From sequence record MH445380.1: a stretch of DNA of 64,000 nucleotides; one strand, 5' to 3'. A program made the position numbers and the translations under genes. Below, in pieces: positions 21,614-28,248 of this stretch. Under the pieces are notes generated by a model that saw only the letters and a list, made by a program, of their open reading frames with translations, had not been told where the DNA came from and ran no database searches. Origin of the DNA: Escherichia phage P1. Every line of letters begins with the position of its first letter. The stretch's first letter is position 1.

Positions 21614-23341
21614 TTACTCAGAGTCACCGGCATCAATCGTGTCGCCGCTAATGAAGTTAAGCCCGCCTTTTTTGGCCATTGTCAGCGTTACACGAGTGAA
21701 GTAATCAGCGCCGTTGCGTGGGTGCATATCGTTGATAGCCGAACCCCACAGTGTGGTACGGTTGACCAGCGCCGGAGTGGTCGGATGCTGGAACGGGATA
21801 GCCGGGACAGCATCACCAGTCACGAAGCCTGCTTTACCCGGATTTTCATCACGGACGTAGCACAGCACATCCATCGAGCTGAACTGAATGTTCTCTGTCG
21901 TTAAGTTCTTACAAATACCAGCAGGTACTTCGTACACTTTCACGTTACCGAACAGGGTACCGATGTAGTGAACATACGGAGTCTGGATATAGTCTTCGGC
22001 TGGCTGGAAGAAATCCTTCGGCAACTGTTTGAAGAAAGATGCTGCATCAGCACCAGCAAACATCCCCATCGCACCAGAAGATTTAACGCGCTCAATAATG
22101 TCGCGATATACAGTCTGGAATTTGCCACGAATGATGGTTGCCCATACATCAAAGGACTGGTTAACCGGCAGAGCGATGTCAAAGGTGTCGGTCGCAAGAG
22201 TACGCCAGATCATGATGCGAAGACGCAGCATATCCTGTTCATGAGACAGGTATTCCTTCAGGGTGCGGAACTGTAGGGAACCCAGGTCCAGACCAAATTC
22301 ACGCTGTGCTTCATACGCCGCCTGTACCGTGTGCTCAGCCGCGATAACGAACTGGCTTGGGAACAGGGTGTATTTCTTCATTTCGTGGTTGATCAGCGGG
22401 ATCAGCTCAGGAGCGGCTTCAATATTGATTTCCGTCTCAATTGCGATCTCAGTGCCTTTATCCGGCGCTTTGGAGAACGACAGGGCAATCTGACCAATGT
22501 TGTAGTTCAGAGAGCAGGTAACAGTGATTTGCTCACCAGCAGCATTAGTAAACGAGTGAAGTAGGCTGCCGGAACCGTTATCAACAACAGACTTAATACG
22601 GTTAACGTAGATGTTAGTGCGACCTTTTCGGATTGGTACATTCTGGCCTTCGAAGTCTTCCATCTTGAAGGTTGCGGTTTTGCTGGTGCCATCGGAGCTT
22701 GCCACCAGCACATAGCGGCGACGTAATTGGCTGTACACACCGACGGATTGCATGTCCAGAACATCACCAGCAGCATAAGAACCAAAAGAGGAACCTGCCA
22801 CGTTAAAGACTTCATAGATGTCGGACTGGTCACGCGTAACCGGAATGAAGGTACACGCATCAGCGGTAGCTGCCCCCAACTGAACAGGCAGGATCATCGC
22901 GAGGAATAAAGGCAGACGCATAACACCGTCAGAAACGCTCATCATCTCTGCTGCGACGGATTCCAGCATCGCTTTATTAGTGGCATCCATGCTATTGCGG
23001 GTGGACTCAATCAGGCAGTTTTCCAGCGTCTGGTGGCAGGAGGCCAGAATTTCCGGACGCGGCATAGATTTATGTGCTGCGGCGTAGTCAGCCAGTGCAC
23101 TTGCCCACGCTGTAGCGATTTGAGCGGTGGCATTATCAGAGATACCCGCAAAAACCGGGTCTTTACGTGCAGCTTCAAGGATAGATGCGGCACGCGCGGC
23201 ATCATCTTTAATGAATTGGTTATCAGTACCGAACTGCGCAGTGCTTGCCCAGCCAAGCACAGCTTTAGAGCGTTTTGCGATATCTGCAATACGATTCTGG
23301 TATTCGCGTAAGTTACTCAATTTACTCTTCCTTAAACACAA
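21614..23341 (-). CDS. Putative major head (capsid) protein
   Basis: 575-aa ORF adjacent to parS; assignment by synteny and size only. Confidence 0.45.
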   Translation of the reverse strand: MCLRKSKLSNLREYQNRIADIAKRSKAVLGWASTAQFGTDNQFIKDDAARAASILEAARKDPVFAGISDNATAQIATAWASALADYAAAHKSMPRPEILASCHQTLENCLIESTRNSMDATNKAMLESVAAEMMSVSDGVMRLPLFLAMILPVQLGAATADACTFIPVTRDQSDIYEVFNVAGSSFGSYAAGDVLDMQSVGVYSQLRRRYVLVASSDGTSKTATFKMEDFEGQNVPIRKGRTNIYVNRIKSVVDNGSGSLLHSFTNAAGEQITVTCSLNYNIGQIALSFSKAPDKGTEIAIETEINIEAAPELIPLINHEMKKYTLFPSQFVIAAEHTVQAAYEAQREFGLDLGSLQFRTLKEYLSHEQDMLRLRIMIWRTLATDTFDIALPVNQSFDVWATIIRGKFQTVYRDIIERVKSSGAMGMFAGADAASFFKQLPKDFFQPAEDYIQTPYVHYIGTLFGNVKVYEVPAGICKNLTTENIQFSSMDVLCYVRDENPGKAGFVTGDAVPAIPFQHPTTPALVNRTTLWGSAINDMHPRNGADYFTRVTLTMAKKGGLNFISGDTIDAGDSE

Positions 23342-23545: not shown

Positions 23546-24547
23546 TTAAGGCTTCGGCTTTTTATCGAGGCTCTTTCTAAGGATATGCCCAATCATCCTG
23601 TCGAGTTCTTCCTGTAGCTCTTTTGAAAGTCGATTAAACTCATAAGAAAATGCACGGCCTTTCACGCGCTTCCTTGCAAAGCGATCCTTGTCCTCAAATT
23701 TCCATAATTCAGTAACTACGGACTTATCTTTAGAACCTTTATCCGTGAGTAGTGAGGCTTCCTTTGTTATCAAGCGCAGGATTTTATTTTTAACTTCATC
23801 TTCGGCCATTTCTTCAATGGATAAGATGTCGTTTATTTCCGGGGATATGTTTTGAATAAGCTGATCAAACTCTAAATTCTTGTTCCCCATTTCGTCGCCA
23901 ACAGCACAAAGCGTTTTGTAGTCCGAAAAGGTTAATTCCGACTGAACAGGGAAAAGGGCGACTAATTCTTCCGGAGCACTCGCTGCCTGGAGAGCACGCG
24001 TGACCTTCGCCTGAGACAGCCCTTCTTTGGCTGCAATATCCTTCTGACTCATCCCATCATTTTTCATTCGCATCAAACGCAGACCTATTTCTCGAATGCT
24101 GTGCTGCAATGCTGTCTGAACGTCTTTCGCTAAATTTTGCGCTTCCTGAACGCTGATCTCCTGGTCCGTGACTAAAACCCGCAACCCTACGTTCTCTAAG
24201 ATGGCAGAAGCTCGACGCCGGGAACCATCCAAAATTTCAATTTTCCCTGTAGCCCGTCTAACACCTATTGCAGGGTAAAATTGCTGATGCTTAATAGTGC
24301 TTCGGATACTTTTTAATGATTTTGGCGTAAGAGATGCCTGGTCACGCCCGTTGTTATGCTGATCAACAAAGGTATCGCTTTCTACCTGGTTCGGAGGTAT
24401 TACCTCTTCAATAAATGTGGCCTGGCGACCAGTTGATAACTTGAATACCTGCTCGACTCGATCGCCAGAGGCTGAAGAACTATCAAATCCGCTTAATATT
24501 GAAGGATTAAGGGTTCGCCCAATTGTTGGTCTGTTTTTCTTTGACAT
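23546..24547 (-). CDS. parB: Partition protein ParB
   Basis: 333-aa ORF downstream of parA and followed by parS; ParB-type HTH region. Confidence 0.9.
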   Translation of the reverse strand: MSKKNRPTIGRTLNPSILSGFDSSSASGDRVEQVFKLSTGRQATFIEEVIPPNQVESDTFVDQHNNGRDQASLTPKSLKSIRSTIKHQQFYPAIGVRRATGKIEILDGSRRRASAILENVGLRVLVTDQEISVQEAQNLAKDVQTALQHSIREIGLRLMRMKNDGMSQKDIAAKEGLSQAKVTRALQAASAPEELVALFPVQSELTFSDYKTLCAVGDEMGNKNLEFDQLIQNISPEINDILSIEEMAEDEVKNKILRLITKEASLLTDKGSKDKSVVTELWKFEDKDRFARKRVKGRAFSYEFNRLSKELQEELDRMIGHILRKSLDKKPKP

Positions 24548-24563: not shown

Positions 24564-25760
24564 TCAGTTAGATCTGATAAATTCAATACGGTCAAAAACT
24601 GCTTTAGCAAAATCTTCCGCGGCAATTCGCGCGTTCTTCAATGCATCAGCACTACCAACATACGTTGCCGGGTTAGCTGAAATAACAGTGTCAAAAGACT
24701 CGCCGCAGCGTTCAAAACCGTCAAGGCGAGGGAGGACAACATCAAGCATATCCCCACCGAACACTTCTTTAGCCAGGCTATGGCAATACTTATGGTCTGC
24801 CTTGTTACTCAACTTGGACATAAAACCAATGTTAGTTGCAAGCTGACACTCGCAGCCTTCATCCGAAATGAGTTTCACCAACTCAGGAAGGCGGGCAACG
24901 TATTTAAGCGATGAGTGGAAATCAACCGTTGCAGGCGGCAGAGGTGTAAACAGTATATTGGCCGAGGCCAAAGCATTTTTCAGGAAGGCGTCAAGGTGAG
25001 GACCACTATCAACGAGGATAAAGTCATAATCGCTCTTCAGCTTATCAATCACATTTTCTTTCAGGACTGCATGGATGTTCTGACCCGGTAGATGCTCATT
25101 GCACAGCTCTCTCCAATCGGATGCAATAAAGGCATCGTCAATCGACGCAGGCATAACGTCAACCCCAGGTACAACAGAAGGAACAATAAACTCCTCTAAC
25201 AGCTCTTCACGGCTTACATTCTGCAACATAGCCTGTGCAGATGTTGCGTTTACGATACCAATAGAGTGTTTATGGCTTAAAAACATCGTTGCTGAAGATT
25301 GCGGATCAAGGTCAATAACCAGAATCCTTAAATCTTCCATCAGAAGATGAGGATGAGCACGCATTGCATGCGCCAGAGAAACCGTCGATACAGTTTTTGA
25401 CACACCGCCTTTAAGATTGGAGATGAAAATCACATACGCTTCGCTGTAGCGATCCCGGTATTTTGGCACTCCGCGATGTTCATATATGTCAATGATGTTC
25501 TGAATTGACATCGCATATTTCATTGAAGAGCCAGCAGGGCGTTTATCGAAAACATAACCCTTTTCTTCCATTTCACTTACGGCATAGTCAACGTTCGCAC
25601 GAGTCAGTAGAGGCAATTTTGCCAGTGCCGCTTTCGCATAGACCTGGTAAAACTCGTTCGCGTGTAGCTCATCCTTTTGCAACTGTACTTGTTCAGTCAG
25701 AACATTGAGCATTCTATTTGCTCTTTGAGCAACCTTGTGAAGCTGGCTGGAATCACTCAT
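24564..25760 (-). CDS. parA: Partition ATPase ParA (type Ia, with N-terminal DNA-binding extension)
   Basis: 398-aa ORF with a deviant Walker A (KGGVSKT) and a ~100-aa N-terminal extension. Confidence 0.9.
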   Translation of the reverse strand: MSDSSQLHKVAQRANRMLNVLTEQVQLQKDELHANEFYQVYAKAALAKLPLLTRANVDYAVSEMEEKGYVFDKRPAGSSMKYAMSIQNIIDIYEHRGVPKYRDRYSEAYVIFISNLKGGVSKTVSTVSLAHAMRAHPHLLMEDLRILVIDLDPQSSATMFLSHKHSIGIVNATSAQAMLQNVSREELLEEFIVPSVVPGVDVMPASIDDAFIASDWRELCNEHLPGQNIHAVLKENVIDKLKSDYDFILVDSGPHLDAFLKNALASANILFTPLPPATVDFHSSLKYVARLPELVKLISDEGCECQLATNIGFMSKLSNKADHKYCHSLAKEVFGGDMLDVVLPRLDGFERCGESFDTVISANPATYVGSADALKNARIAAEDFAKAVFDRIEFIRSN

Positions 25761-25895
25761 CGAAAGTCATCCTTTATGCTGTATTTTTGAATTTAATTAA
25801 AAATGCTGCATAAAATAATAATGTATGCGTAGATGCTTGTACATAGCATTCTCTGCATGTTTGGTTCATTTTGCACGATTGAGAGTTACAAGGAG

Positions 25896-25920
25896 GGCAC
25901 AAAAAAGCCCCGTTCAGGGG
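25896..25920 (-). terminator. Rho-independent terminator after the T5orf172-like gene
   Basis: Read on the minus strand: GCCCCTGAACGGGGC followed by a T-run, 10 bp downstream of the stop at 25929. Confidence 0.5.
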
Positions 25921-25928
25921 CATCAGTG

Positions 25929-26738
25929 TTATTTGCTAAGAGCAGCGAATAATCGTTCGAAATCGATAGTATCTATAGCACGCGTAAGCGCCGGAAGTTC
26001 AGCCTCAAAGTACCCGTGTCGATCGTAAAAGAAGGGACCGAAGAGCGAGGCATGTTGGATTCTACTTCGCCCCAGCCCGGACACACAGTTAAGCCCATTA
26101 CCGGCTAAAAGGCTAAAAAACTTCTCTGGATTATCGTGGTAAAGCTGGGAATCAATGGTGGCGGTTAACTCTTCCATAGGGAAGCACACCCGCCCTGTAT
26201 CCCAGGGATATTTAGTCCGAAGCATAAACATTGCTTTCAGCAATTCACATTGAGCGCGGATCGCGTCCGGTTCATAGCCAGATATGGAGACATAAGCCAC
26301 GTCCCTCATTCCTGCGTCATCTTTGAAAGTCACGATAGAAGTAACATCCAGCTCTTTTTCGAAAGAGCAAGCAGCATCTACTGGACGCTGAAGTAAATCA
26401 TTCGACTTAATGCGCTCGAGAATCCCTCCCCACATATCATTTAGATATTCGATATGAGCCAAAACCTTATCAAGACACTCTCGTGTAAACCATTCAGTAT
26501 GCCCGCCACCGACGCTTTTCTCCCACGGCGCATTCCAGGGGAAAAAGGTTGCGTGTAAAGCCCGCTCAAGATTAACCATTGCCAAACGCGTACCACGATA
26601 GACCCGTGAAAGCGCAAAATCGGGACTCACTTGTAGCCCTTTAAACCGTGCCAATGGACCACATGAAATGCCGATTTTAAAAGTATCTCCGTTCTCTGGC
26701 ACCAGAACGTAGAGGTAGTGTTGTTTCTCTTCTTGCAT
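25929..26738 (-). CDS. T5orf172 / GIY-YIG-like domain protein
   Basis: 269-aa ORF. N-terminus HYLYVLVPENGDTFKIGIS...GGHTEWF matches the GIY-YIG-like T5orf172 pattern. Sits between the replicon iterons and the parA promoter with its own terminator. Confidence 0.6.
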   Translation of the reverse strand: MQEEKQHYLYVLVPENGDTFKIGISCGPLARFKGLQVSPDFALSRVYRGTRLAMVNLERALHATFFPWNAPWEKSVGGGHTEWFTRECLDKVLAHIEYLNDMWGGILERIKSNDLLQRPVDAACSFEKELDVTSIVTFKDDAGMRDVAYVSISGYEPDAIRAQCELLKAMFMLRTKYPWDTGRVCFPMEELTATIDSQLYHDNPEKFFSLLAGNGLNCVSGLGRSRIQHASLFGPFFYDRHGYFEAELPALTRAIDTIDFERLFAALSK

Positions 26739-26759
26739 ATCAATACCACTGCTTGATGA

Positions 26760-27025
26760 GAACCGCGCAAATGTTGACTATGCGCGAAGGTTAATGTGAA
26801 TAGTTGACTATGCGCGATGTGACTACAGTCAAAAGTTGACTGTAGTCGATTTAACTCCACCAAAGATCGACTATGTAAGATATTGTCGGGAGAAACGTTG
26901 ACTATACGCGATGAAATGCCCCTAAAAGCCATCTCAATAGCGACTTGCAGAATATTCGCCAGCAAAAATCCACCAGCGTCAACGAATGTCGCCTATAGTC
27001 AACTTCTCGCTATCGCATATAGTCA
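26760..27025. repeat. Iteron array downstream of repA (incA-like)
   Basis: At least six copies of a ~14-bp core GTTGACTAT(G/A)CGCGA, in both orientations. Confidence 0.7.
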
Positions 27026-27028
27026 ATA

Positions 27029-27913
27029 TTATGGATTGCGCTTATGGATCTGGAAGCCGATTTTCCTGCCGTTTTTTATCTCTGAAAATTTAAGATATTC
27101 AATAGCTTCCAAATCTTTCATGGCTTTTCTGATAACGCTATTTTGCACGCTAACGGATGATTTGAGATTAAGCCTCGCTCTAAGGCGCTCAATGCTGACA
27201 GGTGCCGGGTTGGCGGGTAGAGCCTCAAAGAATGTATACAGTACCTTGGCCGTCTCTTTGCGCCCTAGTTTATCCAGCATCTTCAGCTTCAGGATTCGCT
27301 TATAGTCAACATAGTAAAGTTCAGATAGCTGTTTCTGCGGCTGGATCTCGATAACATCAAGCTCGGTATTCAGGCTGCTATATGCCAACAAGTTGACGTT
27401 AATGTTATTGAGATGACCTTTTGCCGCCGGGAAGCGGAATTTGACAACTGTCTGCTGAATGCGTGTCAGAGAGTCATCAATACTTTTACGGAACGCCTTT
27501 GAAAGGCGCTTACGTGGATAGCCGCATCGATCGGCAAACTCGGAGAATGGCAGGGTGATTATGCCGTCATCATCAGGTGCGTAGTCAAACAACGCGGAGG
27601 TTATGCCCACCCACACCTTAAAATCAGTATCCATATCCAGGCGTGGACCATGAATTTCAATTCCCTCATAGCCTTCCTGCTCAACAATTTTGAGGCTTGA
27701 TAGTTCTTCAGTTGCGTTCGTTGTGTTTGTTGTAACTGACGATCCGCGACGTAGCGCCACATTGGTAGATTTTAAGGTTGGCACAAACACACCTAAGCGC
27801 AACAAAGCGATGGGTTGTATAGTGCTGTTGTTATTGGGCTTCAGGCTGTGGATTTCTCCTGTATTTCCTGCAACTTCTTCAACGCTAAGGAAGCCTTTAC
27901 TTTCTTCCGGCAT
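27029..27913 (-). CDS. repA: Plasmid replication initiator RepA (iteron-binding)
   Basis: ORF flanked on both sides by iterons. In-frame ATG at 27913 has a good Shine-Dalgarno (GGAGAAA); the track start at 27949 is a TTG. Confidence 0.8.
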   Translation of the reverse strand: MPEESKGFLSVEEVAGNTGEIHSLKPNNNSTIQPIALLRLGVFVPTLKSTNVALRRGSSVTTNTTNATEELSSLKIVEQEGYEGIEIHGPRLDMDTDFKVWVGITSALFDYAPDDDGIITLPFSEFADRCGYPRKRLSKAFRKSIDDSLTRIQQTVVKFRFPAAKGHLNNINVNLLAYSSLNTELDVIEIQPQKQLSELYYVDYKRILKLKMLDKLGRKETAKVLYTFFEALPANPAPVSIERLRARLNLKSSVSVQNSVIRKAMKDLEAIEYLKFSEIKNGRKIGFQIHKRNP

Positions 27914-27989
27914 CACGGTTTCTCCATGTGTGGCGCGGCCTGACGTCAATTTGGATGGCTGTTATCAACAGCTGTGAATATTCAGACTC

Positions 27990-28100
27990 TAAAATCGCTT
28001 ACAGTCAATGTTTCTGTCGCGTATAGTCAACAATAAATCGCGTGCAGTCAACAATAAATCGTGCACAGTCAACATAAAATCGCGTATAGTCAATGTTGAT
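27990..28100. repeat. Direct iteron array upstream of repA (origin / incC-like)
   Basis: Four to five direct repeats with 22-bp period: (AATAAAT)CGCGT(A/G)(T/C)AGTCAAC, the reverse complement of the downstream iteron core. Confidence 0.7.
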
Positions 28101-28248
28101 CCCATTTCAGGCCAGTAATGACGCGGCTTACAGCGATCCGGGATCTTCTTTGGATCTTCCTAGGTTCTCTTTAGGATCTGTTTATTGGATCTATGCTGTG
28201 GATAAGTTGAATAAACCGGCCAACAAAGCCGGTTGGAAGGAAGTCATA

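Follow-up and report, generated by a model that had tools for sequence, protein, structure and literature searches.

The Seg genes of phage T4 are free-standing and intergenic and cause preferential inheritance of the markers that flank them. They are also treated in the work of Barth, Dunham & Seed (2023, PMC10448857) on the free-standing T5orf172 homing endonucleases of ICP1 and T5-like phages, in which a catalytic domain is joined to a separate targeting domain; the neighbourhood most frequently reported for the genes of these enzymes is the one between terS and terL, and blocks that have been exchanged are delimited by such nuclease genes. A T5orf172 nuclease with experimentally shown activity, dependent on a conserved glutamate, is Odn (Gp88) of ICP1, which carries a RepA_N-like domain and cuts the iterons of the PLEs; these in turn escape through swaps of their replicon modules (PMC8263062). 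Here we analyse a gene of this family in a stretch of 64,000 nucleotides from the Escherichia phage P1 record MH445380.1 (hereafter the window). The gene lies at 25929..26738 on the minus strand, starts with ATG and encodes a T5orf172/GIY-YIG-family nuclease protein of 269 residues (N-terminus HYLYVLVPENGDTFKIGIS...GGHTEWF), placed between the iterons that follow repA and the promoter of parA. Our best current reading, to which we give about an even chance, is that it encodes a free-standing, homing-type, site-specific endonuclease of two domains, and that the gene belongs to a P1-family replicon cassette as a built-in, though dispensable, passenger, sitting exactly at its parA-side boundary.

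The gene shares several traits with the T5orf172 homing endonuclease genes. Its product joins a catalytic domain to a separate, putative targeting domain, it is a small stand-alone gene between conserved essential genes, it lies at the boundary of an exchanged block, it is present in some and absent from other close relatives, and relatives of the protein are found between terS and terL. It differs from them in the N-terminal position of the nuclease domain and in having no CapR, DUF723 or DUF4397 zinc finger, in its setting within the plasmid-maintenance replicon of a phage-plasmid and not among lytic-cycle genes, and in an apparently stable co-inheritance with one replicon type instead of a patchy occurrence within a type; homing is here a putative property. 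I-TevI and the T4 Seg proteins likewise have the catalytic core of the GIY-YIG superfamily and a modular arrangement of nuclease and DNA-binding parts, but the present protein belongs to the T5orf172 subfamily and not to classical PF01541, its putative DNA-binding module is unrelated to theirs and its setting is a plasmid replicon. The gene as such has been noticed before: RefSeq labels it 'GIY-YIG nuclease family protein', and two papers note in passing an open reading frame (ORF) here, in wordings such as 'unknown gp57' and, in PMC6906374, '2 orfs inserted between repA and parA'.

The family assignment is straightforward. Residues 8-85 match the Pfam family PF10544 (T5orf172) with an E-value of 6.9e-6 and 26.9 bits, above the curated gathering cut-off of 20, whereas the related MUG113 family scored below threshold in the same profile search. 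In PHROGs the protein falls into phrog_2876, a family of its own of unknown function, with a weak match to an 'endonuclease' family. The N-terminal nuclease domain comprises residues 1-103 (26430..26738, minus strand), and its predicted structure has the GIY-YIG alpha/beta fold and resembles SLX1. Twelve positions are invariant across 17 aligned homologues (Y10, K21, G23, R31, D40, S44, E58, L61, H62, E82, W83 and F84), and the GIY-YIG-type tyrosine, the 'YIG'-type strand (F20)K21-I-G23, the conserved arginine and the metal-binding glutamate are all present; none of the polymorphism in 38 natural alleles touches the conserved motif. By alignment logic only, E82 is equivalent to E180 of Odn, the glutamate on which the activity of that enzyme depends (PMC8263062). 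The protein is thus a member of the T5orf172/GIY-YIG family with an intact catalytic motif, and from this we infer that it has endonuclease activity. Full-length homologues of 25-44% identity, together with a ratio of nonsynonymous to synonymous polymorphism below 1 (see below), establish that the ORF is a real coding gene. The initial annotation of the locus had recognised the T5orf172 N-terminus, a terminator belonging to the gene, and a position between the iteron array and the parA promoter, and all three hold: the hairpin with its run of six T lies at 25897..25921, the six iterons at 26773..27027 and the promoter Ppar at 25815..25843.

Two records bear on how the gene is seen elsewhere. 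An identical gene in the phage record OR339795.1 (phi456, 39982-40788) is labelled 'terminase small subunit', which looks like a misannotation. In an E. coli plasmid, a chimeric ORF of 197 residues (P0005) joins an unrelated N-terminus of 78 residues to residues 105-223 of the C-terminal domain of the nuclease protein, a sign that at least one plasmid has lost the catalytic domain through rearrangement.

The gene forms part of a replicon cassette of 2,248 bp (25863..28110, minus strand), which replaces the 1,491-bp IncY cassette of P1 and contains, in this order, the origin iterons, repA, incA-like iterons, the nuclease gene and its terminator. This cassette is the 'p0111' replicon of SJ46-, RCS47- and JL22-type phage-plasmids. 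Outside it, identity to canonical P1 is 99.2% on the side that ends at 25862 and 95.5% from 28111 onward. The left breakpoint falls within oriR, between the iterons and the common GATC/DnaA-box half, and on the right similarity breaks 19 bp ahead of the Ppar -35 element and 66 bp past the stop codon of the nuclease gene. The canonical maintenance region of P1 and P7 (oriR/incC-repA-incA-parA-parB-parS) has its origin iterons, repA, control iterons and par operon in the same order and orientation. Identity to P1 is 99-100% for Ppar, parA and parB, and the GATC/DnaA-box half of oriR is also common to both. At the protein level ParA and ParB are 99.7-100% identical to their P1 counterparts, but RepA is only 41% identical, the iterons have another sequence, six and not nine of them follow repA, and the nuclease gene with its terminator is an extra component between the iterons and Ppar. 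The canonical arrangement has no gene at this place: the distance between Ppar and incA is only about 190 bp in P1, and that from the parA ATG to the first incA iteron is 109 bp in P7. A tblastn search of the 269-residue protein against P1 and P7 gave zero matches, and a search of the P1 spacer between Ppar and incA with all four known alleles at a loose threshold found no remnant (best E-value 0.38, noise). A recent deletion of the gene from P1 is therefore unsupported.

In PLSDB, 413 records match the cassette of the window, and in 391 the match covers at least 80% of it; almost all the others are cut by the start of the record or by an insertion sequence (IS91), and no copy of this cassette type without the nuclease gene is found among the 413. 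The IncY cassette of P1, which lacks the gene, matches 375 records. The parA gene of P1 nests within the parA diversity of plasmids with the p0111 cassette, which implies that the cassettes have been exchanged on a common backbone. With a GC content of 0.474 the nuclease gene equals the mean of the window, and both its GC content and that of its third codon positions are like those of its neighbours, so that a recent foreign origin can be rejected.

These observations change the picture drawn in the initial annotation, which had proposed that the gene may be a selfish homing-type insertion, or else a defence or exclusion gene riding with the replicon, and had taken the lack of an orthologue at this position in P1 and P7 as essential to that proposal. 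The lack is confirmed, and the gene does ride with the replicon, since the whole cassette is replaced as one block; a homing-type or exclusion role likewise remains the best current reading. What does not stand is an insertion into the P1-type arrangement of repA, incA and parA. The block replacement, the homologues in the same slot of three other lineages, one of them with a P1-type RepA, and the GC content at the mean of the window together show the gene to be an old resident of the cassette. Comparison of the repA-parA interval across P1-like genomes finds the slot filled in four lineages and empty in P1, P7 and the 375 records with the IncY cassette.

The other three lineages were recovered by protein searches covering 5.8 and 1.84 billion proteins, which returned only three further full-length relatives: P0004 (44% identity), P0010 (27% identity, from Salmonella enterica) and P0011 (25-28% identity, from a faecal metagenome). 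All three genes are found at exactly the corresponding place in diverged P1-like elements, preceded by repA with its downstream iterons and followed by parA, parB and gene 23, and in all four lineages the ATG of the nuclease gene lies about 25-35 bp past the last iteron. The replicons concerned are of three types. Locus L005 has a p0111-type replicon with a RepA 84% identical to that of the window, L052 is of the P1-like IncY type (RepA 83% identical to P1 RepA, P1-like iterons), and L053 represents a third type of RepA and iterons. The IncY type thus also exists with the nuclease gene, and by this comparison P1 and P7 look like its gene-less state. The backbones of L005 and L052 are 96-99% identical at the nucleotide level, and the block in which they differ begins and ends where the one between the window and P1 does; again it stops just past the nuclease gene. 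The window and L005 share their iterons, yet the C-terminal domains of their nuclease proteins are only 33% identical. The nuclease gene is thus inherited together with the replicon cassette, in a strongly diverged allele specific to each cassette type, and it shows a presence/absence polymorphism between conserved essential genes. In total the gene is present in about 400 p0111-type P1-like plasmids and in three other lineages. A scan of representative genomes found one locus with the same allele as the window, and scans of IMG/VR and metagenomes found this allele and one distant match to the N-terminal domain only. The P0010 allele was not found in metagenome contigs, and neither the P0010 nor the P0011 allele occurs in PLSDB or in phage records.

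The partition genes next to the cassette show a pattern of their own. ParB is far more diverged between lineages (67% identity between the window, where its gene lies at 23546-24547, and L005 and L052) than ParA (89%), and many plasmids pair an IncY cassette with a P7-type par region, their match starting only at the first incA iteron. The par module is therefore a second, independently exchanged unit beside the replicon cassette.

We interpret the nuclease gene as follows. Its product would combine an N-terminal T5orf172 catalytic domain with a C-terminal DNA-targeting domain of winged-helix type. Expression would be low and would probably depend on transcripts that start at the RepA-autoregulated repA promoter and read through into the gene, given that a promoter of its own was not found, and the terminator 3' of the gene would insulate the par operon. 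The enzyme would cut co-resident P1-like plasmids that carry another cassette or lack the nuclease gene, within the interval between repA and parA, and repair would proceed through the common flanks, Ppar and parA on one side and the DnaA-box half of oriR with upfA on the other. As the outcome, the nuclease gene and the whole replicon would be copied into the rival, or the rival would be lost. Activity, target and outcome, be it homing or exclusion, are putative steps of this scheme. The scheme is supported by the short distance between the nuclease stop codon and the point where identity to P1 resumes and by the recurrence of this boundary in L005 and L052, by the occupation of the slot in four diverged lineages with three types of RepA and iterons while it is empty in P1 and P7, and by an evolutionary pattern typical of accessory or conflict genes. 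Further support comes from the distant relatives of the N-terminal domain, P0029 and P0078, the genes of which lie between those of the small and the large terminase subunit, in one Lysobacter prophage and one metagenomic contig (L054 and L055), that is, in the neighbourhood most often reported for T5orf172 homing endonuclease genes (PMC10448857). The nesting of P1 parA among the parA genes of p0111-type plasmids and the demonstrated activity of Odn (PMC8263062) also speak for the scheme.

The evolutionary pattern is seen at two levels. Among close copies, the nuclease gene has a pN/pS (the nonsynonymous to synonymous ratio per site, from polymorphism) of 0.31, as compared with 0.02 in repA and roughly 0.01 in parA. 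For the window against L005, the nonsynonymous divergence dN is 0.51 for the whole nuclease gene, with 0.28 for the N-terminal and 0.70 for the C-terminal domain, against 0.12 for repA and 0.07 for parA; the gene thus evolves 4-7 times faster than RepA and ParA. Synonymous sites are saturated between the lineages, so that dN/dS could not be computed there and polymorphism within alleles was used in its place. Disrupted copies make up about 15% of those that could be assessed (11 of 71) and derive from at least six independent events: the nonsense mutations Q228* (which includes phage SJ46), W68* and S112*, a 1-bp deletion, an IS91 insertion and one insertion/deletion. In the loci with a disrupted nuclease gene, repA and parA are intact, which shows that the gene is dispensable for maintenance and often lost. 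Being absent from P1 and P7 and disrupted in these copies, it is not a core function of P1-type maintenance. At the same time it is clearly, if weakly, constrained, as evident from a pN/pS well below 1, intact ORFs in four lineages and a catalytic motif without polymorphism. The plasmid L004 (NZ_CP080123.1) has multiple IS91-family transposase copies around repA, including one that interrupts the 810-nt nuclease gene at about nucleotides 366-371 and one located to the origin side of repA.

Several observations weigh against the homing interpretation. The P1 spacer is without a detectable remnant of the gene, and the lack of gene-less copies of the p0111-type cassette means that there is no direct sign of ongoing homing within this cassette type. 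That four lineages have kept the gene intact speaks for a selected function and not for a purely selfish cycle. The C-terminal domain is none of the zinc fingers typical of T5orf172 homing endonucleases (PMC10448857), and the promoter scan gave no convincing promoter for the gene itself.

The C-terminal domain is also where the main alternative begins. It comprises the 166 residues 104-269 (25932..26429, minus strand) and has a predicted fold of winged-helix type. By sequence it matches no known DNA-binding family; searches of Pfam at E-values up to 10 and of PDB sequences found no relatives outside the four orthologues, among which it retains conserved patches. Modelled alone, the domain reaches a mean predicted local distance difference test score (pLDDT) of 74.9 and a predicted template modelling score (pTM) of 0.70. 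The best PDB matches of this model, with modest scores, are WH1-type domains of replication initiators of iteron plasmids, and the sole near-significant match among the predicted viral structures in BFVD is a plasmid-replication initiator of COG5527 (E-value 4e-3). A relationship to RepA in sequence is rejected, as hhalign gives a probability of 0.2 and nothing is found in Pfam or among PDB sequences. With a model of moderate confidence, we regard the weak resemblance of the domain to a winged-helix, Rep-WH1-like fold as a lead, not a result.

If the lead is followed, ICP1 Odn may have a counterpart on plasmids in this protein: the Rep-WH1-like domain of the latter would direct it to iterons or origins of its rivals, be these another P1-type cassette or other plasmids or satellites, driving its own cassette into rival P1-family plasmids or destroying those of another type, and the diversification of the cassettes (IncY, p0111 and the third type) would be an escape from it. 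We consider this possible by analogy but doubtful, clearly behind the homing interpretation. It fits with the COG5527 initiator being the only near-significant match in BFVD, with the pairing of every type of RepA and iterons with a nuclease allele of its own, with the start of the gene so close to the last iteron in four lineages, and with the precedent itself, in which a T5orf172 nuclease is likewise combined with an initiator-like DNA-binding domain and replicon modules are swapped between similar elements (PMC8263062). The parallel is incomplete. Odn resembles RepA_N visibly in sequence, while the C-terminal domain here has no sequence similarity to its own or another RepA or to any Pfam family and only a weak resemblance in fold to a different family of initiators, the Rep_3-type WH1. 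The order of the domains is reversed, and the gene lies inside the replicon with which it travels, its target being a predicted one only. Moreover, the window and L005 share iterons and have RepA proteins of 84% identity, but their C-terminal domains have diverged to the extent noted above, which counts against this reading. Were the domain truly Rep-like, T5orf172 nucleases would have borrowed an initiator-type DNA-binding fold twice, independently, in Odn and in this protein.

A domesticated T5orf172 protein, acting as a DNA-binding regulator or replication accessory near the incA iterons and Ppar or by contact with RepA through the WH1-like domain, and so tuning copy number or the coupling of replication and partition, would account for a gene that in all lineages lies beside the iterons and ahead of Ppar, that probably shares a transcript with repA, and whose allele co-varies with the type of RepA; CapR, a domesticated relative of such endonucleases, has been described as a regulator (PMC10448857). 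We nevertheless regard this as improbable, for the catalytic residues, which a pure binder does not need, are invariant in the 17 homologues, P1 and P7 replicate and partition without the gene, about 15% of the copies are disrupted with repA and parA intact, and the gene evolves several times faster than RepA and ParA. Similarly improbable is a decaying remnant, in which a former homing endonuclease gene became fixed in the cassette and now drifts, even though a pN/pS 15-30 times above that of the neighbouring genes and the 11 disrupted copies of 71, the one in phage SJ46 among them, point in that direction. The ratio is still well below 1, full-length ORFs persist in four lineages in which synonymous sites are saturated, the catalytic positions never vary and the conserved patches of the C-terminal domain are kept. 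The inactive remnant by which the proposal of the initial annotation would have been refuted fits the disrupted fraction of copies and not the remaining ones. The least probable reading, a single-gene nuclease effector of anti-phage or anti-plasmid defence for the benefit of host or lysogen, as also suggested in the initial annotation, would suit a fast-evolving, often lost, prophage-borne gene with a nuclease domain, but obtained no direct support: membership in a known defence system is rejected by zero matches to the 5,027 models of PADLOC-DB 2.0 (window protein and P0004, E-values up to 1) and to NCBIfam, partner genes are absent, and in the databases searched the full-length family is confined to one slot of P1-like replicons and not found in defence islands. 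All three of these are less likely than the homing interpretation.

What appears to be new here is the recognition of the gene as a member of a replicon cassette and not an insertion; the conservation of its slot across four lineages and three replicon types, with a pairing of allele and replicon; the recurrent exchange of cassettes with identical boundaries beside the gene; and its evolution as a frequently inactivated gene of conflict type. To these may be added the possible Rep-WH1-like fold of the C-terminal domain, subject to the confidence of the model. P1-like phage-plasmids are common carriers of extended-spectrum beta-lactamase (ESBL) and mcr resistance genes and are typed by their IncY and p0111 replicons. 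These two replicons coexist on one backbone, and a nuclease gene that is a constant passenger of the alternative cassettes and sits exactly at the boundary of the exchange provides a testable hypothesis for the exchange of modules or the exclusion of rivals. If the Odn-like reading is true, the long-noted IncY/p0111 dimorphism would have arisen from an arms race over replication origins, driven by nucleases. A nuclease of the homing or Odn kind in this position would also carry that concept beyond lytic phages and satellites to the modules that maintain plasmids. If the protein is inactive, the finding reduces to the correct annotation of an accessory ORF.

The surroundings of the gene in the window complete the description of the cassette. 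On its downstream side and outside the swapped block lies parA (24564..25760, minus strand), the product of which has 398 residues with HTH_54 and AAA_31 domains and is 99.7% identical to P1 ParA. Its promoter Ppar, also on the minus strand, has its -10 element at 25815-25820 and its -35 element at 25838-25843 (TGTACA-17-TATTAT in the promoter scan) and is identical to the annotated Ppar of P1, the annotation having been transferred through the 99.2% alignment. The intrinsic terminator of the nuclease gene (GCCCCTGAACGGGGC followed by T6, minus strand) begins 8 bases past the stop codon and lies 35-60 bp within the edge of the cassette; its hairpin, GCCCC-TGAAC-GGGGC, has a folding energy of -11.9 kcal/mol and a z-score of -2.8 relative to shuffled sequences. 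An equivalent terminator follows the nuclease homologue in L053. On the upstream side, the six incA-like iterons fill the interval between the repA stop and the nuclease ATG, four in one orientation (26773, 26803, 26835 and 26897) and two in the other (26989 and 27013), with a gap of 34 bp between the last of them and the ATG. No sigma-70-like promoter was found by the scan between these iterons and the ATG, the only minus-strand site nearby lying inside the ORF. The iteron sequence GTTGACTATRSGCGA, with up to 3 mismatches allowed, has 15 matches in the window as compared with 4.0 expected, a number reached by none of 100 shuffles. The repA gene itself (27029..27913, minus strand) is of p0111 type and encodes a Rep3-family protein of 294 residues from the ATG at 27913. 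At higher positions come five origin (incC-like) iterons with a spacing of 21 bp (27995..28094), the cassette-specific part of oriR, and then the part that is common to P1 (28098..28205), with a cluster of GATC sites and the DnaA box TGTGGATAA, just beyond the boundary of the cassette.

A few minor observations concern repA and the genes around it. A perfect iteron-like 15-mer, GTTGACTATAAGCGA, occurs within the repA coding sequence of the window (27296-27310), and the repA gene of L005 keeps it identical (about 7613-7627) whereas the DNA around it has an identity of only some 71%; possibly RepA binds there, within its own gene. The mechanical ORF list gives longer, TTG-initiated forms of RepA (306 residues, with the addition at 27914-27949) and of the gene 23 product (575 residues, 23321-23341). 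The ATG starts annotated in RCS47 and P1 are shorter than these, and the shorter ones (27913 for repA) fit the homologues. A repA gene with iterons 75-76% identical to those of the cassette is found in another E. coli phage-plasmid (L003, CP042620.1, 88462-89603), where it adjoins a tail-protein gene and has neither parA nor the nuclease gene next to it, which points to another relative of this replicon, there in a different genomic setting. Lastly, the Lysobacter prophage L054 carries at 13567-13938 a second small gene of this superfamily, of the classical GIY-YIG type (PF01541), between genes of the portal region and the capsid, and so contains more than one putative homing-type nuclease gene.

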